A stretch of 64,000 nucleotides of DNA from Patescibacteria group bacterium (GTDB lineage: Bacteria; Patescibacteriota; Patescibacteriia; 2-12-FULL-57-11): positions 462,647 to 526,646 of the forward strand of contig SCUL01000002.1 of assembly GCA_004297205.1 (NCBI GenBank). The letters run 5' to 3'. Below, in pieces: positions 3,813 through 56,774 of the stretch. Under the pieces are notes generated by a model, which was not told the origin of the DNA, ran no database searches, and saw only the letters and a program-made list of their open reading frames with translations. Position 1 is the first letter of the stretch; the number at the start of each line of letters is the position of its first letter. Position numbers and translations under genes: made by a program.

Positions 3813-3909
3813 ACCTATACAAATCTGTACATTTTGTGAAAATCGCTCATCCTCCCGACAAAAACGAGGTTGCCACGGCGCCAAAAAACGGGCAGGATAG
3901 CGGCAGTTT

Positions 3910-3984
3910 TCGCCCCTAGCTCAACGGATAGAGCTCCGGTCTTCAGAACCAGTGATGGGAGTTCGATTCTCTCAGGGCGCACCA
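3910..3984 (+). tRNA. tRNA-like gene with a Trp-type body but anticodon UCA (loop CUUCAGA); CCA encoded. Acceptor stem non-canonical as read.
   Basis: D-arm GCTC-AACGGATA-GAGC; anticodon arm CCGGT-CTTCAGA-ACCAG (one C.A mismatch); T-arm GGGAG-TTCGATT-CTCTC; 3' AGGGCGC-A-CCA. The 3' half closely resembles E. coli tRNA-Trp (GGGAGTTCGAGTCTCTC). The 5' strand tCGCCCCta pairs imperfectly with AGGGCGC, and G37 is unusual for a UCA anticodon. Confidence 0.5.
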
Positions 3985-4867: not shown

Positions 4868-5926
4868 TCAGGCGCGTTCGCGGGGACGGGTGACCAGGGT
4901 CTGCGCGTCCTTGGCGTCGACGAGTCCTTCGGCCACGAGCCGCTTGGCGTCCTGGGCCAACGTGTACATGCCGTACTTGCCGGAGGTCTGCAGCACCGTG
5001 TCTATCTGCGCGGACTTGCCTTCGCGGATCAAGTTGGAAATGGCGGACGTATTGAACAGGACTTCGCGCACGGCGATGCGGCCGCCGCCCCGCTTCGGCA
5101 ACAGCTGCTGCGTGACGACGGCGCGCAGCACCGAGGCCAGCTGCACGCGGATCTGATTCTGCTGGTGCGGCGGGAAGGCGTCGATGATGCGTTCGATCGT
5201 CGTGGCCGCGCTGTAGGTGTGGAGTGTGGCAAAGACGAGGTGTCCGGTTTCCGCCAGGGTCAGCGTCGTGGCGATCGTTTCCAAATCACGCATTTCGCCG
5301 ATCATGACGACGTCCGGATCCTGGCGCAGGATGTGTTTCAGGCCTTCGGCGAAGCTGCGCATGTCTTCCCCGAGCTGGCGCTGACGGATCAACGCTTTGC
5401 CTTGCGGGAAGAGGAACTCGACCGGGTCCTCGAGGGTCACGATGTTGGCCGCGACGCGCTCGTTGACGAGGTTGAGGAGCGTGGCCAGCGTCGTCGATTT
5501 GCCGGAGCCGGTCGGACCGGTCACGAGAATGAGCCCGTGCGGCAGCGTGGTGAGATCGGCCACGGCTTGCGGCAAGGACAGGTCGGCGACGCTCGGAATC
5601 TTCACCGGCACGAGACGCGCGGCCATGCCGACGTTGTTCTTTTCCTGGTGGACGTTGATGCGGAAACGCGCCCCGCCCGTGGTGTAGGCGGCATCGAGCT
5701 CCAAGTTCTGTTCGAAGCGCGCGATCTGCTCCTTCGTGAGCACGCCGTACACGAGTTCCCTGACCTGCTTTGCGGTGAGCGGCACCCCTCCTCCGACCGG
5801 CACGAGCGCGCCGTCGATGCGCAACGTCGGCGGCCGACCGACCACAAGGTGCAGGTCCGAGGCCTTGGCGGTCACGGCGGCGGAGAACAGCGCGTCCATG
5901 ACATTGTTGACGACGGGTGCGGGCAT
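4868..5926 (-). CDS. pilT: Type IV pilus retraction ATPase PilT.
   Basis: Walker A GPTGSGKSTT; PilT-family motifs LRQDPDVVMIGEMRD, AETGHLVFATLHT, GGGRIAVREVL. An alternative start at M10 (5899) matches the PilT N-terminus MDALFS. Confidence 0.9.
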   Translation of the reverse strand: MPAPVVNNVMDALFSAAVTAKASDLHLVVGRPPTLRIDGALVPVGGGVPLTAKQVRELVYGVLTKEQIARFEQNLELDAAYTTGGARFRINVHQEKNNVGMAARLVPVKIPSVADLSLPQAVADLTTLPHGLILVTGPTGSGKSTTLATLLNLVNERVAANIVTLEDPVEFLFPQGKALIRQRQLGEDMRSFAEGLKHILRQDPDVVMIGEMRDLETIATTLTLAETGHLVFATLHTYSAATTIERIIDAFPPHQQNQIRVQLASVLRAVVTQQLLPKRGGGRIAVREVLFNTSAISNLIREGKSAQIDTVLQTSGKYGMYTLAQDAKRLVAEGLVDAKDAQTLVTRPRERA

Positions 5927-8265: not shown

Positions 8266-10758
8266 CTAGATGAACGTCACCGTCGCCACACCGTCCTTTT
8301 CTTCCTTGAAGCGCATGAGACGCACGCCCTGCGTGTCGCGGCCGAGTTTGGAGACCGAGCCGAACGGGATGCGCACGACCTGCCCCTTCGAGGAGACGAC
8401 GATCAGGTCGCGCTCGTCCGAAGACGCGGAGACGTAGGCACCGACCGCTTCGCCCGTCTTCGGGCTGATGTGCATGGTCTTGATGCCGGAACCGCCGCGG
8501 CCCTGGAGTTTGTACTCCTTCAGGTTGGTGCGCTTGCCCATGCCGTTCTCGGCGATGACGAAAAGCTCCAGCATGTTCTTTTTGACCATCTCCGGGTCGA
8601 CGATGTCCATGCCGATGACGCGGTCGCCCTTCTTCTTGAGTTTGATGCCGCGCACCCCGGCGGCGGCGCGGCCCATCGGGCGCACGCTCTTTTCCGCGAA
8701 GCGGATGCTCTGGCCCTGGGCGGTCACGAGGATGACGTCGTCCTCGCCGGTCGAGGGGCGCACCCATTCCAGGATGTCCTCGTCCTTGAGTTTGATGGCG
8801 ATCAGCCCGTTCGAGCGCAGGTTCTTGAATTCCTCGATGGCCGTCTTCTTGATGTTGCCGTTCTTGGTGACCATCACCAGGTGCTTCTGCTCGGCGATGT
8901 CCGGCACCGACAGCACGGCGGACACCTTCTCCCCTGCCGCAAGCTGCAGGAAGTTCACGAGCGCCTGGCCCTTGGAGGTGCGCGAGCCCGGCGGCACGTC
9001 ATAGGCCTTGAGTCCGAAGACGCGGCCGCGCGACGTGAAGAACAGCATGTCGGCGTGCGTGTTCGTCGTGAACAGGTGCTCCACCACGTCTTCTTCCTTG
9101 GTGGTCACGCCGATCACGCCCTTGCCGCCGCGGGCCTGGGTCTTGAAGGTGTCCGGCGGCACGCGCTTCACGTAACCGTCGCGGGTGATCATGACGATGG
9201 TCGGCTCGTTCGGGATGATGTCCTCGACCGAGAACTCTTTGACGCCGTGGGCGATGATCTCCGTCTTGCGGTCGTCGCCGTACTTCTCGCGGATCTCGGC
9301 CGTTTCCTGCTTGATGACGGCGCGGATCTTCTTGGCGGAAGCGAGCAGCGCCTCGAGCTCCTTGATGACGGCGAGCTTCTCCTTGAGTTCGGTCTCGACG
9401 CGCAGGCGCTCCAGGTTGGCGAGCGCCGAGAGCTTCATCTCCAAAATGGCCACGGTCTGCGGCTCGGTCAGCTTGAACCGCTTGATGAGGTTCACTTTGG
9501 CCTCGTCCTTGTCGGCCGACTTCTTGATGGTGTCGATGATCTTGTCGATGTGGAGCAGGGCGATCTTCAAGCCCTCGAGGATGTGGGCGCGGTCGCGGGC
9601 GCGGGCCAGCTCGTAGGTGGCGCGGCGGCGGATCACCGTCTCCCGGTGCTTCACGAACTCCTCGAGCATGCTCTTCAGGTTGAGCACGCGCGGCTGCAGC
9701 CCGTCGACGAGCGCCAGCATGTTGACGTGGAAACTCGTCTGCAAATCCGTGGACAAGAACAGCTTGTTGAGCACCTTTTTGGGATAGGCGTCGCGCTTGA
9801 GTTCGATCACGATGCGCACGCCTTCCTTGCTCGATTCGTCGCGCAGGTCCTTGATGCCTTCGATGTTCTTGTCGCGCACCAGATCGGCGATCTTCTCGAT
9901 CAGGGTCGCCTTGTTCACCTGGAACGGCACTTCGGTGATGAAAATCTTGGCCGCACCGTCGTCCTCGACGATTTCCGTCTTGGCGCGCATGACGATCGAG
10001 CCGCGGCCCGTGGCGTAGGCGGCGGCGATGTCCTTGGTGCCGTAGATGATGCCGCCTGTGGGGAAATCCGGCCCCTTCACGATTTTGCAGAGGTCGGAAA
10101 TGGAAGCGTCCGGGTTGTCGAGGAGCAGCATCACGCCGTCGCAGATCTCGCGCAGGTTGTGCGGCGGGATGTTCGTGGCCATGCCGACCGCGATGCCGAC
10201 CGTGCCGTTCAAAAGCAGGCCCGGGAGCTTGGCCGGCAGCACCACCGGCTCCTTGTGCGAGCCGTCGTAGTTGGGGGCGAAGTCGACGGTCTCCTTGTCG
10301 ATGTCGAAGAGCAGCTCCTCGGCCACGCCGGCCAGCTTGGCTTCGGTGTAGCGCATGGCCGCGGCGCCGTCGCCGTCCATGGAGCCGAAGTTTCCCTGGC
10401 CGCGGATGCGCGGGTAGCGCTCGGAAAAGTACTGCGCCATGCGCACCATGGCGTCGTAGACCGACTGGTCGCCATGCGGGTGGTATTTGCCGAGCACTTC
10501 ACCGACCACGGTCGCGGACTTGCGGAACTTGGCGTTGGCGCGCAAACCCATCGTCCACATCGCGTAGAGGATGCGGCGCTGCACGGGCTTCAAACCGTCG
10601 CGGACGTCGGGGAGTGCCCGCTGCACGATCACGCTCATGGCGTAATCGAGGTAGCTCGTCTGCATTTCGTCGACGATGGCGCGGGCTTCGATTTTGCCGA
10701 TGTCGGTGCCTGCGGGCACCACGATCTCCTTGTCTTTCGGGGGCAGCTTCTTGGCCAT
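8266..10758 (-). CDS. gyrA: DNA gyrase subunit A.
   Basis: 830 aa. N-terminus [38 protein letters not shown] plus C-terminal beta-pinwheel repeats. Confidence 0.95.
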
Positions 10759-47179: not shown

Positions 47180-47370
47180 TACGGCCACAAAACAAGAGCC
47201 TTTTCGGGCTCTTTGTGTGGTCATGAACAACTGAAGACCATTGCCCAATAGTCAGCCATGGAGGCATCGTGCTTTTCATGGTTGCAACGTCTGTCCGAAG
47301 AGTCGCAAGACTCTTCAATTCAACAGATCTCCAAATAGAGCTATCAGCTCTCGAAACCGGCTTGCCGGTT

Positions 47371-48866
<1,496 letters not shown>

Positions 48867-49140
48867 CTAGGGAGTGTTATTCTACTCTTCGGGGTATGAA
48901 TCATTTCCGTCGAACTCGCTGCGCAGTGCAGCGGGTATAGGACGTTGCAACCATAAAGGGCATGAACAAACGCCGGCCGAAAGGCCGGCGTTTTGATTGG
49001 CCAAGGCCCTTGCCAGGAATCGCCTTTTCCCCTACAGTATCCGGGCAAAACAGACATACGGCGTGGATCGTCGCTTCGCTCCGATGCACGCCCGTCGTCC
49101 GTTCGGCTTCCGAAAGCGAGCTTTCGAAGCCTCACTCCCT

Positions 49141-49217
49141 AGGGCGTGTAGCTCAGTTGGTTAGAGCGTTACACTGATAATGTAAAGGTCGATGGTTCGA
49201 CTCCATCCACGCCCACC
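49141..49217 (+). tRNA. tRNA-Ile (anticodon GAU) in the 16S-downstream spacer; CCA encoded.
   Basis: GGGCGTGTAGCTCAGTTGGTTAGAGCG, anticodon loop CTGATAA, T-arm GGTTCGACTCC, 3' end CACGCCCACCA. Followed by the hairpin atcccccg-taaata-cgggggat (49218-49245). Confidence 0.85.
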
Positions 49218-49345
49218 AAAATCCCCCGTAAATACGGGGGATTTTGAATAGAGATGAATGGTTTCCCGCAAATCGCTGACCTCTGGTTGCCCTGGCTATG
49301 CCCCACTGTGATCAACACTGAGATGTTCTGAGCAGACTGATCGAA

Positions 49346-49555
49346 CTACTGCATCTGGTTCCTCCAGCCGGAGTCCCACTGCTTCGATATCCATACCTCG
49401 ACATCGTCCCGACGGAAGCGTCGTTGTCGGCCAAAGCGGTAGAAGGCAAGGTCTCCCTGAGCGATAAGGCGCTCGAGCGTCGCTCGTGACACGCGAATCA
49501 ATGTCGCGAGCTCGGGTGGAGTCAGAAATTCTGAAGAGCGCTGTTGATCCAGCAT
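49346..49555 (-). CDS. Excisionase/AlpA-like HTH DNA-binding protein (69 aa).
   Basis: LTPPELATLIRVSRATLERLIAQGDLAFYRFGRQRRFRRDDVEVWI. Confidence 0.6.
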   Translation of the reverse strand: MLDQQRSSEFLTPPELATLIRVSRATLERLIAQGDLAFYRFGRQRRFRRDDVEVWISKQWDSGWRNQMQ

Positions 49556-49834
49556 AGTGATCGGGCATCATCATGGTAGGAAGTGCGCCCCCACCCTGGA
49601 TGATCCAAAGAGCGGCGTCAACGCCATCGTGACCCGACCCCTTCAGAAATGCCGGAAACTCATGATATAAGCCTGAAGATTGTTGTTATGTCAGAAAGCG
49701 TCATTTCAAGCCGCCAATTCTAGATATCTGTTGGGCGGCGACATTCGACGTCTTCCAGACTTATATGATAGTATCACCGATGTCGTCCTATTCATTAGCT
49801 TTCTCGTGTGTCACGCGTCGTTCCCCTTATATCA

Positions 49835-50776
49835 ATGCGCCTTCGTCAGCAGTGGTTGCGCGAACTCGGCGGACTTCAGGCATTTTCGGTGAAAAACAAA
49901 GAGTGGCTTCCATTGCTTGAGGAAGACACGCGCCAGTCCCTGATGATCGAGGGCGAGTTTGTCGATCGACGGGAACTGAAGAACATACTTGAACGTCGAC
50001 CAACGCCGCTGAGCGCCAAAGCCCACAAGGTGCTCGGATACTTCGATGCGGCGAGCTTCAGCTACGAATTCGCGTTCCAGCAGTTTCGTACCGGCGAGTT
50101 CGCTCTGAGCAAGGCGCTGCTACTTCAGATACACGCCCTCATGTTCCGAAATGATCCGCACTTCGCATACACGCCGGGAGAGTGGCGGCGCGGCGACATC
50201 ACCATTACTGGTGCGCCCGTGCGACCACCACCCGCGCATCGAGTGCCTGGGATCATGGATCGCCTGCTCGATCTCGCCAACAAGGCGAAGAGGGACCCCC
50301 TGCGTATCGCTGCCGTCCTTCACGCGGTATTCGAGCACGTCCATCCGTTTCCGGACGGCAACGGACGCGTTGGGAGGATCCTCCTCAACTTCATTCTCAT
50401 TGCGCACGGCTTGCCGAACATCGCCATCAAGGGAATGGAGGCGGAGCGGTCTGACTACGTCGCGGCGTTGGAGGAGGCGGATCCGGTTGTCGCGGACGTA
50501 CTTCGTGGTAGGCGGCCGTGGACATTCCTGCTCCAACACCCGTTCCTGCATCTCGAGGAGATTCTCAATCACGATCTCGCGGTTGCCATGGATTCCATCG
50601 TCTGTCCGCGCTTTGAGGAGAAGCGTGCGCCCTTGATGACGCTTGAGGAAGTCGCCAGGCAGACGAGCAGGAAGCTCCCCTCGTTTCAGACAGCCTGTTC
50701 TCAAAAAAAGTACATCTCAATCAAGCGCGGCCGAAGCCGCGTGACGCATCCGCTCCTTCTTCAAAAGCCGCGGTAG
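49835..50776 (+). CDS. fic: Fic/Doc family protein (AMPylator-type Fido domain).
   Basis: Fic motif HPFPDGNGRVGR. Start at ATG 49835 (MRLRQQW); the track start at 49808 is GTG. Followed by a terminator-like hairpin at 50809-50845. Confidence 0.8.
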   Translation: MRLRQQWLRELGGLQAFSVKNKEWLPLLEEDTRQSLMIEGEFVDRRELKNILERRPTPLSAKAHKVLGYFDAASFSYEFAFQQFRTGEFALSKALLLQIHALMFRNDPHFAYTPGEWRRGDITITGAPVRPPPAHRVPGIMDRLLDLANKAKRDPLRIAAVLHAVFEHVHPFPDGNGRVGRILLNFILIAHGLPNIAIKGMEAERSDYVAALEEADPVVADVLRGRRPWTFLLQHPFLHLEEILNHDLAVAMDSIVCPRFEEKRAPLMTLEEVARQTSRKLPSFQTACSQKKYISIKRGRSRVTHPLLLQKPR

Positions 50777-51042
50777 TGTCCGAACGGAGTGACCGGAATA
50801 ACAGAACAACTCCCCCATTACTGGAAGAGTTGTTCTATCGGCCGCACCTCTGCCCGCCCGTACGTAAGGCGTGCAATGTATGCAGGGCAGCGTTTATCCC
50901 TGGTACCTGTTGACCGGACGTTGCCCACGCCGTGACAGGGTGAGTAAGTGTCGAGTCACCAGAGACGCCGCCGACCTTATGATTCCAGGCTCTTCTGCGA
51001 CCTGCAAGAGACTGGAGTGATCCCAGAATCACGCTTACCCGG

Positions 51043-51067
51043 GGTTCGACTCCATCCACGCCCACCA
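51043..51067 (+). repeat. attR-like direct repeat of the tRNA-Ile 3' end.
   Basis: Identical 25 nt to 49193-49217. Confidence 0.7.
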
Positions 51068-51118
51068 GAAAAGCGCCTCTCTTCGGAGAGGCGCTTTTCT
51101 TTGATACAGTATCGGCAT

Positions 51119-51685
51119 ATGCGCCTCACCCCTTTGCTTTCGGTCCTATCCACGATCACGCTGGTCGGGGCAGGTTGTTTCCCCTCGACGCCGGCCATCA
51201 CTTCCTTCGAGGAGTGCGCCGCGGCGGGCAACCCCGTCATGGAATCGTATCCGCGCCAATGCCGCACCCCGGACGGCCGAAGCTTCACCGAAGAAGTCTC
51301 GCCGCCTCCCTCGCTCGGCCTGTGGGCGGAGCCCAACGGCATCGTCGTGACGGATCAGCAACCGGGCGCAAGCGTCACGATTTCTGCAATCATCATGGAG
51401 AAGGCTGGTTGGATCGTCATTCATAAAGAAGCCGCTGGCAAGCCCGGTGTCGTGATCGGTGAGGCGCGTCTCGTGGCCGGCGAGAGCAGCCAGATCAAGG
51501 TGTCGCTGCGGGAGGCGACCCTCGAGGGCATGGGGTATTACGCCATGCTGCACATGGACGACGGCGACGGCCGCTTCAACATTGCCAAAGACGCCCCGGT
51601 ACGCAGCTCCGTGCTTGATGGAATCATCATGGCGCGGTTCGAGGCCTCGGCCGAGGCGGGTGAACCGCCGGTCGTCAATCCGTAA
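51119..51685 (+). CDS. Putative lipoprotein/secreted protein, hypothetical.
   Basis: Signal peptide MRLTPLLSVLSTITLVGAGC (Cys at the lipobox position). Real part of track ORF 50948..51685. Confidence 0.5.
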   Translation: MRLTPLLSVLSTITLVGAGCFPSTPAITSFEECAAAGNPVMESYPRQCRTPDGRSFTEEVSPPPSLGLWAEPNGIVVTDQQPGASVTISAIIMEKAGWIVIHKEAAGKPGVVIGEARLVAGESSQIKVSLREATLEGMGYYAMLHMDDGDGRFNIAKDAPVRSSVLDGIIMARFEASAEAGEPPVVNP

Positions 51686-51905
51686 CACGCGTCACTTGCG
51701 TGATCTGCGGGGACATGTGAGGATCCCTGCATGTTGGTCACCCAAGCCATCGCCACTTGGTCCGGCTTCGCCCGCGCCGCCCGCTCCTGACCGGGCAGCG
51801 GCCGCGCTTTGATCGCCAAAGCCCTGGAATCCGCCCTGCTCGGGCGGATTTTCTTTTTATTCATCTGCCACGGGTTGCTGCGGCCTTCCCTCTCTCGCTG
51901 ATCCT

Positions 51906-52610
51906 ATGATCGTCCGCGCCATCAAGACACGCGTGTTCCTTGAAGGTGAAAACGTGCACCATTTCATCGCGGAGCATGTCCGCCTGCTGCACGAGCGATC
52001 CATCCTCGTCGTCACCTCGAAGATCGTCGCGCTCGCGGAAGGGCGGACCGCCACGCCCGCATCCGAAGAAGAGAAGGCGGCTCTGATCCGCAGCGAGAGC
52101 TCGTTGGCCATTCCGACCACCTACTGTTGGCTGACCGTTCGGGACGGCATGGTCATGCCCTCCGCGGGAGTGGACGAGTCGAACGGCAACGGCAAAACGA
52201 TCCTTCTCCCGCGTGACAGCTACGTCGCCGCCTCGGCACTGCGGGAAACACTGCTCAAAACATGCAAGTTACGGCATCTTGGCGTGCTCGTGACGGACAG
52301 CCGGACGCTTCCGCTGCGCGCCGGCGTCACCGGCGTCGCCATGGGCTATGCCGGTTTTCGCGGCATTCGCGACTACCGCGGCAAGCCGGATATCTTCGGG
52401 CGTCTCCTGCGCATGTCGAGAACCAACGTGGCCGACAGCTTGGCGGCCGCCGCGGTGCTGCTGATGGGTGAAGGCGCGGAGCAACAGCCACTTGCCATCG
52501 TGGAAGATGCTCCGGTGGAGTTCAGCGACATCGTCGATCGCGGAGAACTGGCAATCGACATTCGTGATGACATGTATCGTCCATTGTTCACGAACATCGC
52601 TCACTCATGA
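51906..52610 (+). CDS. CofE-like F420-0:gamma-glutamyl ligase family protein.
   Basis: F420_ligase-family motifs SKIVALAEGR, GNGKTILLPRDS, VLVTDSRTLPLRAGVTGVAMGYAGF. Confidence 0.6.
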   Translation: MIVRAIKTRVFLEGENVHHFIAEHVRLLHERSILVVTSKIVALAEGRTATPASEEEKAALIRSESSLAIPTTYCWLTVRDGMVMPSAGVDESNGNGKTILLPRDSYVAASALRETLLKTCKLRHLGVLVTDSRTLPLRAGVTGVAMGYAGFRGIRDYRGKPDIFGRLLRMSRTNVADSLAAAAVLLMGEGAEQQPLAIVEDAPVEFSDIVDRGELAIDIRDDMYRPLFTNIAHS

Positions 52611-52640
52611 ACAATCTGTGGATAACTAGGTCGCTTTTTC

Positions 52641-52668
52641 TTGCTCTCACACTTCATCGTGCTACACT
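52641..52668 (+). promoter_or_regulatory. Putative promoter for the small basic peptide gene.
   Basis: TTGCTC-16nt-TACACT. Confidence 0.3.
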
Positions 52669-52780
52669 GAATCGTGCATGGAGGAAATTTGTGATGAGAT
52701 CGCCGATTTCCTCGCAGCACATCACATAACGCGCCACGCATCTGACGTGCGTACCGCGCACACGGAAGGAGGTGACCGAC

Positions 52781-52867
52781 ATGGCTAAACGGAAGAAGGC
52801 AGCGAAGCGGAAGCCGGCCAAGCGGCCCGCCAAGCGGAAGAAGGCGACCAAGAAGCGCCGCGCCTAA
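52781..52867 (+). CDS. Tiny Lys/Arg-rich peptide (28 aa: MAKRKKAAKRKPAKRPAKRKKATKKRRA).
   Basis: Strong SD GGAGGTGA 5 nt before the ATG; an intrinsic terminator immediately follows. Not in the ORF track (below 60 aa). Confidence 0.4.
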   Translation: MAKRKKAAKRKPAKRPAKRKKATKKRRA

Positions 52868-52871
52868 TGAC

Positions 52872-52910
52872 GCTCAAAAATCGCTCCCTTACAGGAGCGA
52901 TTTTTGTTTT
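52872..52910. terminator. Bidirectional terminator (small peptide gene on +, endoQ-like on -).
   Basis: aaatcgctcc-cttaca-ggagcgattt followed by TTGTTTTG. Confidence 0.5.
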
Positions 52911-54132
52911 GCTTCCGTTTCGTCTTCTTTGAAAATCCGCACCGTGCCGTATTGTCCGTCGAAGCCGCCGAGCACCGTGAGTTCTGCCGCGCGTACCCTG
53001 CGTATCGCTTCAGCCACGCGTTGCCCGCCTTCCGCGGCGATCTGCGCCAGCGGAACATCCAAAAGAACGGCAAATTCACTACCGACGCGGTCGGTCAGCC
53101 GCTGGTACACCTGCTGCACTTTTTTCGAAGCCGGGCCGACATCCAGAGCTTCGCCGATGACTTGTTCGAGCGGCACGATGCTGCGAAACGGCACGGCATC
53201 CGGGGGCTTTCCGCCGTCCGGCCGGTCGGCCAGCGCCGCGACGCGGGCAAGGACGCCGACCGTGACCTGCTTGCCGCAAGCCGGACAGATCCCTTTCCGC
53301 TTGGCCGTCTCTTCCGGCTTCATGCGAACGCCGCACAGACGATGACCGTCCAAATGATACTTCCCCTCTTCCGGAAAGAATTCGATCGTCTCCACCAGCG
53401 CTTTCTTGTCGCGGCCGGCGATGGCCGCGTACAGCGCGGCGTAGGTGCGCTCCGGCAGATCAAACACGTCGGCTTCACGGCCGAGGTTGCGCAGCGAGTG
53501 CGCATCGGAGTGCGAGAGCAGCAGCACGCCGTCCAGTTGCGAGAGGCGCCAGTTCATGGCCGGGTCCGAAGAGAGGCCGGTCTCGATGGCATGGATGTGT
53601 TTGGCGTCGTCGCCGAAACACTCGGTGATGCTGTCGAAACCGGACTCGGAACCGAAGATGGCGAACCACGGCGTCCAGGCGTGCGCGGGAATCAGCAGCG
53701 TGCGCGGATCGGCTTCCTGGATGAGGTGCAGGAGATCGACCGAATCCATGCCGAGGATCGGCCGCCCGTCGGCTTTCAAGTTCTTCCCCAGTTTTTCCAG
53801 AGCGGCGCGGATCTTGTGGACCGCGGCGAAATCCGGCGCAAGAAGCACGAGGTGGACGCGCCGTACTTTGCCGCCCCGCTTGTAGATGCAGGCGACTTCA
53901 CTCGACAGCACGAAGCGCGCGCCGGGCTCCGCCGGATACGCATAGGTGCCAGGCGCGACTTCCACGAGGTCGCGCTCGAGTTCCGCGATCCAGGCCGGAT
54001 GCGTGAAGTCGCCGCTGCCGAGCAGATCGATCCCCTTGCGCCGGGCCCATTGCGCCAGGTTCGGCACGGTGAGTTCCTGGCTGCAGGCGCGGGAAAACCG
54101 CGAATGGATATGGAGGTCGGTGATGGTGCGCA
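52889..54132 (-). CDS. PHP-domain endonuclease, EndoQ-like (PHP N-domain plus C-terminal Zn-finger-like region).
   Basis: Real frame is the tail of track ORF 52889..55210, with start at ATG 54132 (MRTITDLHIHSRFSRACS..GIDLLGSGDFTHPAWI, like the EndoQ N-terminus; later CPACGK). TATACT at about -13..-8 from the ATG suggests a leaderless transcript. Confidence 0.55.
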
Positions 54133-54159
54133 TGCCGGGCAGTATAAAGGAACGTCGGG

Positions 54160-54194
54160 ATAAAAAAAGTGGGCAGCGACGGTGAGTCGCTGCC
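54160..54194 (-). terminator. Intrinsic terminator between rsr and the endoQ-like gene.
   Basis: Minus strand: gggcagcgac-tcacc-gtcgctgccc followed by ACTTTTTTTA. Confidence 0.5.
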
Positions 54195-54219
54195 CGCGTT
54201 GCCGATGCAACGGTGGCGC

Positions 54220-55944
54220 CTAGGCCGCCTCGGGATCGTCCTCGGCGGAGGACGGCGCCCGCCCGGTCTCCCACCGGGCAATCCGCGCGACCGCCTGGGT
54301 TCCGTCCTCCTCGTACGAGGGGATGAACTCCAGGAGCCGCTCGGACCAGCCGGCAAGGAGCGCGACGCGCGGCTCGTCGCTTGGGAACTGCGCGGTGCCG
54401 TATCCGGCCAGGTCCACGGAGTACAGGAAGACTCCGGGGTTCACCTGGCTGCGGTACCGCCGCAGCTCCTCGGCAAGCGACGCGTCCCGGACGGACTCGT
54501 GCCACATTCCGTGCGCGGCCTGGGCCGAGTCGTAGCACTGCATGTCCGAGAAGAGGATGATCCGGTCGACCCGGGTCTTCGTCTCGCGCAGGTGCCGGAC
54601 GGCGAGGTACGCGTTCGTGGCGTGGCCCACGTCGGTGTTCGCCAGGCGCGCCATGTTGGTGATGATCGAATCCTTGGAAAGGACCGGCACCACCTTGTGA
54701 CTCTCGCCGAACACCGAGCACACCGCCTGGTCGCACATCGTGTGGGCGATGGCGCCGAGGAGGTTGGCCACGTCGCGCAGCGCGACCGTCGAGCGCTCGG
54801 AGACCGGGGACTGCATCGAGCCCGAGTTGTCCGCGGTGATGAACGTGCGCCCCGCGAGTCGGGGCAGATTCACCACCGAAGCCTCGAGCGCCGCAAGCAG
54901 CGCCTCCATGACCTCCGTCCGCCGCGGGTGCGACGCGATGCGCTCGTCGAGGGCCCGCCCCGAGATGCCGCACCACTCGCCCGCCACGGACGGGTCGAGC
55001 ACCCGGTACGCCGAGTAGAACCGGAACGGCAGCTGCCGGCTCCGCCGCACGTGCTCGGGGTTCCGGAGCATCGCGATCACGCGGTCGAGCGCCTCGTCGG
55101 CGCCGTTGCGCATGAGGTTCGCGATGTTCCGCATCCCGGCCATGAACGGCAGGCGCAGTGCGTTCCAGGTCTCGGCCTTCGCCCCGAAGTGGGAGATGAG
55201 GACCTCCCACGTGGCGTCGGCCGCGGCGGCGAGCGCGCGCGCCTCGTCGTCGAACGCCTGCTTGCGCAGCAGGGCCGACTTGGCCGCGAGCTTCGGCAGG
55301 AGCGCCGCGTCGAGCTCGCCCTTCACCAGGTACCGGTAGAGCGCGGAACGCTCCGGTGTGCCGGGCTTGGGGCGGACGATGCGCAGCACGTCGCGGAGCT
55401 TCACGGCCCGGTCGCGGTCGTACTTGGCGAAGTGGTACTCGCCGAAGTTCCCGAGCGCGTCCGCAAGCCCGCGGGTGAGGCAGTTCGGGAAGGCGTGCTC
55501 CCCGCCGCGCTCACCGTGCGAGCCGATCGGCCCGTGCGCCCTCGTCCACGCCGCGATGACCTCGGCCGGCTCGTCCGCGCGGCGGACGATCTCCGGGGTC
55601 CAGCGCCGGACGAACGGCTTGCAGGCCGGGATGGACGCGGCCATGGCGAGCACCACGATCGGGGTCGACCGGATGTGCATCACCTGGCGCGTGTAGGCCG
55701 CGAGCCGGAGCACGAACTCCGGATCCACCGCGGCCGCGGCGGCAACGTCGGCGAGGAGCTCCACATCCGACGTCTGTCCGTCGGCGTAGAACTTCGGCTC
55801 GCCGGCGAGCGACGCGCACACCCGCGTGTACAGCCGGGTCCGCGCATCCGAGGTGAAGGCGAGGCCGCCCCCGTGGTTGCGCGTGGCATCGGCGCGGGAG
55901 ACGACCTGCTCACGGATCGACGGCGAACGAAGATTCTGACGCAT
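54220..55944 (-). CDS. rsr: Ro60 ortholog Rsr (TROVE domain plus C-terminal vWA).
   Basis: TROVE region (PKFYADGQTSDVELLADVAAAAAVDPEFVLRLAAYTRQVMHIRS) and vWA MIDAS motif ITADNSGSMQ. Start ATG 55944 has SD GGAGG 5 nt upstream; the track start is GTG 55956. Confidence 0.8.
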   Translation of the reverse strand: MRQNLRSPSIREQVVSRADATRNHGGGLAFTSDARTRLYTRVCASLAGEPKFYADGQTSDVELLADVAAAAAVDPEFVLRLAAYTRQVMHIRSTPIVVLAMAASIPACKPFVRRWTPEIVRRADEPAEVIAAWTRAHGPIGSHGERGGEHAFPNCLTRGLADALGNFGEYHFAKYDRDRAVKLRDVLRIVRPKPGTPERSALYRYLVKGELDAALLPKLAAKSALLRKQAFDDEARALAAAADATWEVLISHFGAKAETWNALRLPFMAGMRNIANLMRNGADEALDRVIAMLRNPEHVRRSRQLPFRFYSAYRVLDPSVAGEWCGISGRALDERIASHPRRTEVMEALLAALEASVVNLPRLAGRTFITADNSGSMQSPVSERSTVALRDVANLLGAIAHTMCDQAVCSVFGESHKVVPVLSKDSIITNMARLANTDVGHATNAYLAVRHLRETKTRVDRIILFSDMQCYDSAQAAHGMWHESVRDASLAEELRRYRSQVNPGVFLYSVDLAGYGTAQFPSDEPRVALLAGWSERLLEFIPSYEEDGTQAVARIARWETGRAPSSAEDDPEAA

Positions 55945-56774
55945 GGGATCCTCCACCTGCCCCGCTCAGCGGGACGGAACGTTGTTATGTGCGAGTTGTG
56001 AAAGAAGAGGCCCGGGACGCGTGTCGTCGCCGGGCCATGAAGCTTGCGTATCTGGGGAGAAGAAGCGGAATCGGATGCTTGTCACCGCGCCGTACCGCGA
56101 TGGCATCCACGACGTCCTTTCGGACGCCGCGGGAGTGGAACTTTCGTTCCCCAGGGACGTGACCCCGAACGGGTCCGTCATCCCTGGTGCCGGCATCAAC
56201 CCTCACACGGAGGTCCGCCGACATGATGTTCAACCGACTGTCGAGGCCGGTCGACCATTCCCAATTGGAGATGTTCTTTAGAAGTAACCGGTTCCTACGC
56301 TGCCCCAGACGCGCAACTTGTGAAGGTTCTCGAGGAAGAAACGACGAGGGTCTTGTATGCCACTTGGAAAGAAGTATCCCTCGTCTACACCGCCGAGCGC
56401 CTTCGTCGCAGGCCGGAACCGAGCGGTTCCGGACTTGGACGAAGGGCCGGGCGGCCCCTTCCCCACGGTCCACACGCGGAGAGCGGTTTCCGCGCTCCAG
56501 AGGAGTGCAGTCCCCGCGTACCCTGGACAAGCATCGACAGGTCCGGTGCGGTCCGTTCGATCCGACGACAGTGATCTATCGCCAGCTCGATGCACCCGTT
56601 CTATCACAGGATGAAAACTTTGTCAAGTCCTTAACTACTGAGAGTCTAATTTACTACACAACAGAGCCAAATTATAACACAATAAAGTATAACGATATAT
56701 CCTACAGACGAATGAGCGGCGACAACGCAAGTGTCGCCGCGCCCTTGACGATCCACCGGGGTCGTGCTAGGTTC

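Follow-up and report, generated by a model that had tools for sequence, protein, structure and literature searches.

A Fic-encoding islet between tRNA-Ile 3′-end repeats in a Patescibacteria genome, a probable relic of an integrative element

A two-gene islet at the 3′ end of tRNA-Ile

The DNA under study is a 64,000-nt stretch from a Patescibacteria group bacterium (assembly GCA_004297205.1, contig SCUL01000002.1, positions 462,647-526,646 of the forward strand; hereafter the window), and its subject is a small islet that adjoins the tRNA-Ile(GAT) gene located downstream of the 16S rRNA gene. The sequence GGTTCGACTCCATCCACGCCCACCA, which forms the 3′ end of the tRNA, occurs exactly at both ends of the islet, as the attL and attR cores of Table 1, and nowhere else in the window. 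No further copy was detected in the window when up to three mismatches were allowed, and 100 shuffles gave no match. A preliminary description of the locus, made from the sequence by itself, had reported that an exact 25-nt direct repeat of the tRNA 3′ end brackets the islet, and the two copies are confirmed where none is expected by chance. Identity between the repeats stretches to 28 nt with one mismatch. The DNA between them measures 1,824 bp, or 1,849 bp as a unit that includes one 25-bp core (49219-51067), and its only credible genes specify a protein with an HTH_17 domain and a Fic protein.

Table 1. Features of the 16S rRNA-tRNA-Ile locus and of the islet, in window positions.
Feature	Position	Strand	Basis or remark
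16S rRNA gene	47370-48866	+	Rfam RF00177, 1467 bits, full length; opens the 16S-tRNA-Ile transcription unit
tRNA-Ile(GAT), complete, CCA included	49142-49218	+	ARAGORN; Rfam, 78.2 bits; 275 nt 3′ of 16S
attL core, 3′ 25 nt of tRNA-Ile	49194-49218	+	Exact repeat; four-way att alignment
Element-borne terminator-like hairpin	49217-49246	+	13-14-bp stem, -22.3 kcal/mol, z = -5.7; directly after the regenerated tRNA
HTH_17 gene, 69 aa	49346-49555	-	Reads towards attL; PF12728, TIGR01764
Divergent intergenic region, 279 nt, 49% GC	49556-49834		Presumed HTH_17 and Fic promoters
Class II Fic gene (predicted class), 313 aa	49835-50776	+	PF02661; FICD alignment; AlphaFold2 (AF2) model; Foldseek; PADLOC
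Non-coding right arm (P arm side)	50777-51042		Open reading frame list; tblastn
Hairpin 3′ of the Fic stop codon	50803-50836	+	-18.2 kcal/mol, z = -4.4; likely Fic terminator
attR core, exact second tRNA 3′ end	51043-51067	+	Preceded by non-tRNA sequence
Native terminator of the 16S-tRNA-Ile unit	51067-51100	+	15-bp stem, -27.2 kcal/mol; directly 3′ of the tRNA in L066
DUF7282 lipoprotein-like gene, host flank	51119-51685	+	PF23951; 69% amino acid identity to L066

The attL core spans the last 2 bp of the T-stem 5′ arm, the T-loop, the T-stem 3′ arm, the 3′ strand of the acceptor stem, the discriminator base and CCA. The hairpins adjacent to the two att cores were folded directly; a scan for consensus promoters and terminators missed them, the T-runs lying inside the stems. 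Within the divergent intergenic region a single sigma-70-like match was noted on the minus strand (49689-49662), which is a weak pointer to a promoter. Excision of the islet is predicted to produce the junction ...AAAGGTCGAT-GGTTCGACTCCATCCACGCCCACCA-GAAAAGCGCC at attB and ...CACGCTTACCCGG-GGTTCGACTCCATCCACGCCCACCA-AAATCCCCCG at attP of the circular form.

The guanine plus cytosine (GC) content of the inter-repeat DNA is 56.3% compared to 63.7% for the window and 55% for the neighboring 16S rRNA gene. An earlier figure of ~45% for the islet is not borne out, a value as low as 49% being confined to the 279-nt intergenic region. At third codon positions the GC fraction is 0.71 for Fic and 0.66 for HTH_17, whereas the median is 0.84 for the 34 Pfam-supported host genes, only one of which is lower. 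The difference in composition between islet and host is real but modest. The hairpin on the attL side (AAAATCCCCCG...CGGGGGATTTT) resembles the terminators that natively follow tRNA-Ile in L059, L060, L082 and L087, members of a lineage of lower GC (47-51%). The attP arm may thus at one time have been acquired from a lower-GC host; the hairpin is too short and simple for homology and the likeness is not used as evidence.

A scan of metagenomes with the 25-mer core GGTTCGACTCCATCCACGCCCACCA recovered 39 loci. Comparison with relatives that lack the islet had been proposed as a check, and locus L066 supplies a precise empty site. This locus carries the 3′ end of 16S (100% identity over 101 nt) followed by a tRNA-Ile that is identical to that of the window at all 77 nt (52/52 + 25/25). 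Directly after CCA comes GAAAAGCGCCTCTCTTTGGAGAGGCGCTTTTC... and then the DUF7282 gene, which is the sequence found 3′ of attR in the window. In BLAST comparisons, window positions 49142-49221 and 51043-51197 aligned with overlapping positions of L066 (299-379 and 351-505, respectively), the flanks of the two loci being 88-93% identical with a value of 93.5% over 51043-51150. In a four-way alignment, attB of L066 equals the left side of attL, the core and the right side of attR. Two further relatives, L075 and L079, have nothing inserted after the tRNA. A genome contig scan with the CofE-like downstream protein gave best relatives that are 66% identical, none of which is syntenic with 16S-tRNA-Ile, and revealed no empty site. 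The perfect repeat, the empty site and the integrase-bearing elements with the same core that are described below together leave little room for doubt that site-specific integration at the tRNA-Ile 3′ end gave rise to the islet, as the preliminary description had proposed.

The contrary view, that no mobile element was inserted and that the arrangement is an assembly chimera or the outcome of illegitimate recombination or duplication around a native Fic gene, is very unlikely. The source is a metagenome-assembled genome (MAG) and the GC contrast, 56% vs 64%, is modest with the islet lying near the rRNA value. However, L001, a contig assembled independently (Logan) from run SRR8426588, is identical throughout its length to positions 48731-55031 of the window and spans both junctions, such that the repeat, whose loss on re-inspection would have spoken against the original proposal, is reproduced at each end. 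Moreover, the repeat boundaries coincide with the identity block of bona fide integrase elements, the site in L066 is precisely empty, and Fic homologs are non-syntenic across Patescibacteria.

Certain other loci bear on the tRNA ends. The core in L057, L058, L065 and L074 lacks the 5′ part of tRNA-Ile(GAT), and these loci were rejected as att sites: they are actually tRNA-Ile(TAT) genes with the same 3′ end. The 3′ end of tRNA-Ile is repeated in L084 (857-992) as an exact 33-nt copy that comes 26 nt after the gene, an arrangement that resembles a minimal att scar whose two copies have hardly any DNA between them. A partial copy of the tRNA-Ile end in L088 (77-240) has a T-loop that is interrupted by a hairpin of ~30 nt.

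The islet occupies the position of a would-be 16S-23S spacer and neither 23S nor 5S was found in the window with Rfam, which had raised the idea that the insertion itself separated 16S from 23S. This notion is scarcely tenable at all. Beyond the attR core lie the native terminator and then native genes over 13 kb, and the order in the empty site is 16S, tRNA-Ile, terminator and DUF7282 with no 23S, which already refutes splitting. Further, L090 and L055 have 16S, tRNA-Ile and additional tRNAs with no 23S, and in L071 23S and 5S are located ~8 kb from 16S-tRNA-Ile and on the other strand. Unlinked rRNA genes are characteristic of Patescibacteria (10.1101/705046). The L071 locus includes a 23S fragment with a group I intron (RF00028, 55.5 bits) and then 5S (235-624 and 1974-2092).

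Integrase genes beside the same core in related elements

The islet encodes no integrase or other recombinase, and none (PF00589, PF00239 or transposase) was recognized among ~50 open reading frames (ORFs) scanned across the window. When 120 family integrases were compared with the window by tblastn nothing was returned at E ≤ 1e-3. Thus, the two approaches agree with the original remark that no integrase remains. As regards pseudogenes, the L056 integrase and the 120 family integrases matched only tail residues of the islet that are encoded by the att sequence, and no gene remnant was recognizable in the right arm, where the matches of the 120 integrases again were confined to att-encoded residues. 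None of the 120 best family integrases lies on the 855,898-bp source contig. A self-mobile island was rejected for want of an integrase.

Tyrosine integrases with a matching att had been suggested as a target for searches, and they were found beside the same 25-nt core in L056, L096 and L097. The L056/L052 locus has the identical core, then a hairpin and, on the opposite strand, a gene for a 406-aa tyrosine integrase (PF00589, 8.8e-26) whose start is overlapped by an HTH_17 gene. Homologs of the L056 protein are site-specific integrases for which the named sources are Patescibacteria, Uhrbacteria and Falkowbacteria. The integrases of L096 (P0127) and L097 (P0126) are 50-52% identical to that of L056 and are arranged in the order HTH_17, int, hairpin and exact antisense core, with HTH_17 again overlapping int. 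The same HTH_17-int-hairpin module is present in L095 (P0128), where it ends in the 3′ end of a different tRNA. As TraG/TrwB-like and Replic_Relax genes are carried by L095 and L097, the parent of the islet would be of a type resembling integrative and mobilizable elements (IMEs) or integrative and conjugative elements (ICEs).

The element-borne hairpin of the window has a counterpart at the equivalent position in L056, L067/L096 and L097, which bear int. Read from the tRNA, the order in the window is core, hairpin, 100 nt and HTH_17 on the minus strand, whereas in the intact elements it is core, hairpin, int and HTH_17, the latter two also on the minus strand. In L067/L063 a complete tRNA-Ile, the core and the hairpin are followed by an int homolog that has an intact C-terminal catalytic half, 51% identical to the L056 integrase, and an N-terminal half that is out of frame. 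This locus is a decaying integrase at the exact position at which the window has none, and is an intermediate stage of decay.

The core also borders other islands. In L069/L083/L070 it is the attR of a different island of >8 kb with a serine recombinase (PF00239) and a JAB/MPN protein; in L069/L083 it is placed just before tRNA-Gly (oriented positions 8581 and 8404, respectively) and the island also specifies a 1110-aa protein of unknown function. As the L069/L083 island uses a serine recombinase, the tRNA-Ile att is a hot spot for unrelated recombinase types. Opposite int, the core of L096 and L097 is flanked not by the tRNA, but by another island with its own integrase, which is read as tandem accretion at the tRNA-Ile core, the situation in which cis-mobilizable elements (CIMEs) are described (PMC5704250).

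Two further properties of the integrase family were observed. The ORFs of family integrases (L056, oriented positions 3855-3886; L097, 6543-6586; P0122-P0126 and P0139) extend across both the terminator hairpin and the att core and finish in C-terminal tails of the type ...VGVDGVEP..., which derive from the antisense tRNA end; because the tails are encoded by this read-through, integration would alter the C-terminus of the integrase. Beside the att site of L096 (3789-11597) is a second integrase along with a cluster of QueC, PTPS, GCHY-1 and DndB-like genes, resembling a 7-deazaguanine DNA-modification island.

The HTH_17 and Fic proteins

The small protein of the islet matched PF12728 (4e-15; 56.2 bits with a cut-off of 27), the excisionase-family model TIGR01764 (2.5e-15; 56.6 bits with a cut-off of 28.8) and phrog_66, 'excisionase and transcriptional regulator'. 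The preliminary description had termed it an AlpA/Xis-like HTH protein; the Xis-type designation is upheld by HTH_17 and TIGR01764, but the Pfam AlpA family was unmatched. Over 45-50 residues the protein is 44% identical to the int-linked HTH_17 proteins of L096 (E = 1e-13) and L097 (3e-10), and is 38% identical to that of L095. Its gene has the same orientation relative to the core as the int-linked HTH_17 genes. Linkage to int is present for the homologs in L056, L095, L096 and L097 and not at the window gene. A word-indexed search of 5.8 billion clustered proteins retrieved only the protein itself. The HTH_17 protein is a probable recombination directionality factor (RDF) or element regulator.

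The Fic gene matched PF02661 (1e-18) and possesses the intact motif HPFPDGNGRVGR, as first described. This motif, H170-PFPDGNGRVG-R181, fits the pattern HxFx(D/E)GNGRxxR. Residues I38, E39, G40, H170, P171, G175-N176-G177 and R181 are invariant in 66 homologs, and S35, F172, D174, R178 and G180 are conserved in ≥90% of these sequences. At the N-terminus is the inhibitory motif S35-LMI-E39-G40, whose sequence SLMIEG aligns to TVAIEGN of human FICD from the inhibitory helix onward. In the classification scheme for Fic proteins, class II is characterized by an N-terminal inhibitory motif in the same chain (PMC3667792), and the window Fic is assigned by its sequence to class II, with predicted intramolecular inhibition. 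The AF2 model has a mean predicted local distance difference test (pLDDT) score of 87.9, a predicted template modeling (pTM) score of 0.87 and a Fic fold. Residues 21-43, including the inhibitory motif, have pLDDT < 50 and hence the class II assignment derives from the sequence instead of the model.

The best Foldseek matches of the Fic model were BtFic (3CUC), FICD, SoFic and Coxiella Fic2, with top E values of 1e-6 to 1e-8 (3CUC, FICD and SoFic). The C-terminus (~266-309) forms a beta-alpha-alpha-beta-beta unit that is an HTH_17-like winged helix, and Pfam calls HTH_17 there in more distant relatives. The best PADLOC match was the SoFic model PDLC03963 (4.2e-32, residues 9-214), a profile with no cut-off, whereas the NCBIfam SoFic equivalog NF046030 scored 38 bits against a cut-off of 550. 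The protein thus appears SoFic-like, which is a resemblance only, and not SoFic. We infer AMP-transferase activity and an anti-phage defense role for it from sequence comparisons.

Class II Fics, namely SoFic, BtFic (BT_2513), human FICD/HYPE and Coxiella Fic2, share with the window protein the Fic motif, the inhibitory helix motif and the Fic fold, although the protein is only 16-24% identical to the solved structures. SoFic and CbFic2 have an extra C-terminal domain of DNA-binding type, as does the window Fic in which the domain is of the excisionase/HTH_17 type. The likeness to SoFic as a single-gene anti-phage defense system consists in the PADLOC match and in the status of a solitary mobile gene at variable loci; the window protein is likened by the profile match alone and falls below the NCBIfam equivalog cut-off.

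Homologs of the Fic protein are 49-62% identical to it, nearly all are from Patescibacteria and their neighborhoods are unrelated. Occurrence of the same Fic gene in a syntenic and native context would have argued against the islet, and the homologs in other Patescibacteria are non-syntenic. L092 has a Fic gene whose product is 59% identical; to one side of the gene is a tRNA 3′ end accompanied by a hairpin, to the other a degenerate copy of that end, also with a hairpin, and no integrase is present. Local alignment of the two end copies scored 28, whereas the highest score among 1,594 control windows was 19, and this locus is a second Fic islet that lacks an integrase, at a different tRNA. 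The Fic gene of L093 is 285 nt 3′ of tRNA-His. The scattered homologs, the L092 islet and the position of the L093 gene indicate that the Fic family behaves as mobile cargo that outlives its vehicles. In L002 (GCA_018812725.1, JAHJCR010000001.1; 4980-8370) a repeat of ~48 nt with the core TTTAGAGCTTTCGCGCCGGTTGGGGG is present at 5096, 5721, 6968 and 8322 and sets off successive small genes for a Fic homolog (P0008), an HTH_17/MerR protein and a pair comprising HTH_17 and a short Fic/Doc protein. These repeat-delimited genes resemble a cassette array.

The HTH_17 protein alternatively might be a dedicated regulator or partner of Fic, the two genes forming a cargo or defense module like 'mobile mystery protein A/B' from which the xis and int module has gone. 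The genes are divergent from a common 279-nt control region; the closest Fic homolog, in L091, has an adjacent HTH_17 gene, as does the short Fic/Doc gene in L002; distant Fic relatives have a C-terminal Pfam HTH_17 fusion and the window Fic has the same fold there; and there are weak matches of Fic to mobile mystery protein B (TIGR02613) and of HTH_17 to MADS1/mad1. However, the window HTH_17 protein aligns better to the int-linked proteins (44%) than to the Fic-adjacent protein of L091, with which no BLASTP alignment was obtained. With respect to the core and terminator, its gene is placed and oriented like xis in the intact elements, and most of the Fic homologs examined have no adjacent HTH_17 gene. 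A dedicated Fic partner is thus improbable.

The preliminary description viewed the pair as a toxin-like Fic and a regulator that might neutralize it. This pairing has no sequence support: by sequence reading the (S/T)xxxE(G/N) motif is not present in the HTH_17 protein, and Fic has its own inhibitory motif. The HTH_17 protein was rejected as a Fic antitoxin on these motif grounds. In class I FicT/FicA systems (VbhT/VbhA) there likewise is a small gene beside Fic on mobile DNA, but in the window the small gene is divergent, specifies HTH_17 and lacks the motif, which is in Fic itself. With a divergent 69-aa HTH_17 partner devoid of the motif, a class I Fic toxin-antitoxin system also was rejected.

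Origin and significance of the islet

Overall, the islet is interpreted with a probability of approximately 0.7 as a CIME-like relic of a Patescibacteria tRNA-Ile integrative element whose integrase has been lost. CIMEs are defined by intact attL and attR sites and the loss of integration and transfer genes (PMC6323972, PMC5704250), a definition that the islet fits because both cores are perfect and these genes are gone. The parent would belong to a family of Patescibacteria tyrosine-integrase integrative or mobilizable elements in which the module runs from HTH_17 (Xis-like) through int and terminator to an attP core that is equal to the 3′ 25 nt of tRNA-Ile(GAT), starting in the T-loop region and ending with CCA. 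By recombining with the tRNA gene through attP, the element would have come to lie between 16S-tRNA-Ile and the native terminator. The element DNA would have rebuilt an identical tRNA 3′ end and brought a new terminator, the displaced original 3′ end becoming attR. The int gene, which is ~1.1-1.2 kb between HTH_17 and the terminator in intact relatives, and any transfer genes then would have been lost. What remains would be an RDF-like HTH_17 gene, a divergent promoter region and a class II Fic cargo, the latter a putative AMP-transferase-type enzyme that is held off by its own N-terminal inhibitory glutamate and has a Xis-type C-terminal winged helix. The islet would now be immobile alone, but the cognate integrase of a related element could excise it, or such an element could dock into attR and carry the islet along.

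Several points weigh against this interpretation. Neither the 100 nt that separate the HTH_17 stop codon from the terminator nor the remainder of the islet has any trace of an int pseudogene, such that deletion of int is deduced from the layout and not directly seen. The arms of the islet have no DNA similarity beyond the core to those of L056, L096 and L097. None of the int-bearing relatives examined has a Fic gene, and Fic therefore could have entered separately. The HTH_17 family is broad and, in view of the domain fusion in distant Fic relatives and the HTH_17 neighbor in L091, the HTH_17 protein could be a Fic-linked regulator and not an RDF. The attR copy retains a perfect sequence, in keeping with a recent event or with use that continues. 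Finally, the check for integrase genes covered 64 kb of the ~856-kb genome.

The preliminary description left a choice between a decayed element and one that is mobilized in trans. On the evidence, decay is the more probable of the two options. The window retains the core-terminator-HTH_17 layout minus int, and on this basis the gene was somewhat more probably deleted than never present. If the islet instead is an active CIME or satellite, it never carried or no longer needs its own int and is moved or co-excised by the integrase of a related tRNA-Ile element. In favor of this are the two perfect 25-nt cores, the intact RDF-type gene, the occurrence in the same phylum of int-bearing elements whose core is identical, the further island with its own integrase that flanks the core in L096/L097 and looks like tandem accretion, and L092 as a second integrase-less Fic islet. 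Nevertheless, an actively spreading element should leave close copies, whereas no near-identical copies were found: the HTH_17 protein had no match but itself in the 5.8 billion clustered proteins, and identity to Fic homologs does not go beyond 62%. Moreover, neither the window nor, for the 120 best family integrases, the source contig supplies an integrase, and the degenerate attR of L092 indicates decay instead of use. Current activity of the islet is a possible but unlikely reading. A broader version of this proposal, which is tentative at best, envisages integrase-less, att-flanked, single-cargo islets at tRNA 3′ ends as living minimal hitchhikers that are moved by HTH_17-int elements with the same core. 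The RDF of the islet itself then may direct a foreign integrase to excise the islet, and L092 may be such a case with Fic alone. If this were true, tRNA-Ile 3′ of 16S would be a shared docking site for the exchange of defense-type genes among ultra-small episymbiotic bacteria.

A CIME-like relic is akin to the CIMEs known beside ICEs and IMEs in Streptococcus and cataloged in ICEberg 2.0: both att sites are kept, integration and transfer genes are absent, related int-bearing elements share the att of the islet, and tandem arrays occur at the site. The islet differs in its host, which is a member of Patescibacteria (Candidate Phyla Radiation, CPR) and not of Firmicutes, in its very small size (1.8 kb) and in the retention of a Xis-type gene. 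It is likened to CIMEs from the intactness of its att sites at the sequence level, with ICE/IME derivation and cis-mobilization being putative. Islands and IMEs that target tRNA genes with tyrosine integrases also are similar in the T-loop-to-CCA crossover block and in regeneration of the tRNA by element DNA; in the relatives L056, L067, L096 and L097 int abuts att, whereas the islet lacks this defining integrase. A phage satellite of the phage-inducible chromosomal island (PICI) or P4-like type was rejected, as the islet has two genes only and no integrase or packaging genes. Viral contigs scanned with the att core and with Fic yielded no match and hence no viral contig with the core or a Fic relative.

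Two features of the window lie apart from the islet. A 75-nt gene on the plus strand (3910-3984) was designated 'tRNA-SeC' with anticodon TCA by ARAGORN and scored 42 bits with the Rfam tRNA model. It is of ordinary size, unlike selenocysteine tRNA, and possibly is an opal-reading or suppressor-type tRNA; TGA is the stop codon in 18 of the 34 Pfam-supported genes of the window. On the minus strand, a gene for a Ro60/TROVE plus vWA protein (54220-55956) adjoins one for an MJ0043_C-domain protein (52889-54133), and no Y RNA was found in the window at the Rfam gathering score.

The islet is a fairly ordinary leftover of a tRNA-targeting mobile element and reveals no new mechanism. However, the biology of mobile elements in Patescibacteria is thinly described, and the locus and its relatives document tRNA-Ile(GAT) as a hot spot for integration, a conserved HTH_17-int-terminator-att module in the phylum, and a decay series that extends from intact int through 5′-broken int and no int to a bare att scar. 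They also document a class II Fic gene that is widely scattered, behaves as mobile cargo and resembles defense proteins of the SoFic type. These patterns are of use in annotating genomic islands in CPR MAGs, with the caution that tRNA-end repeats beside rRNA genes do not explain unlinked rRNA operons.

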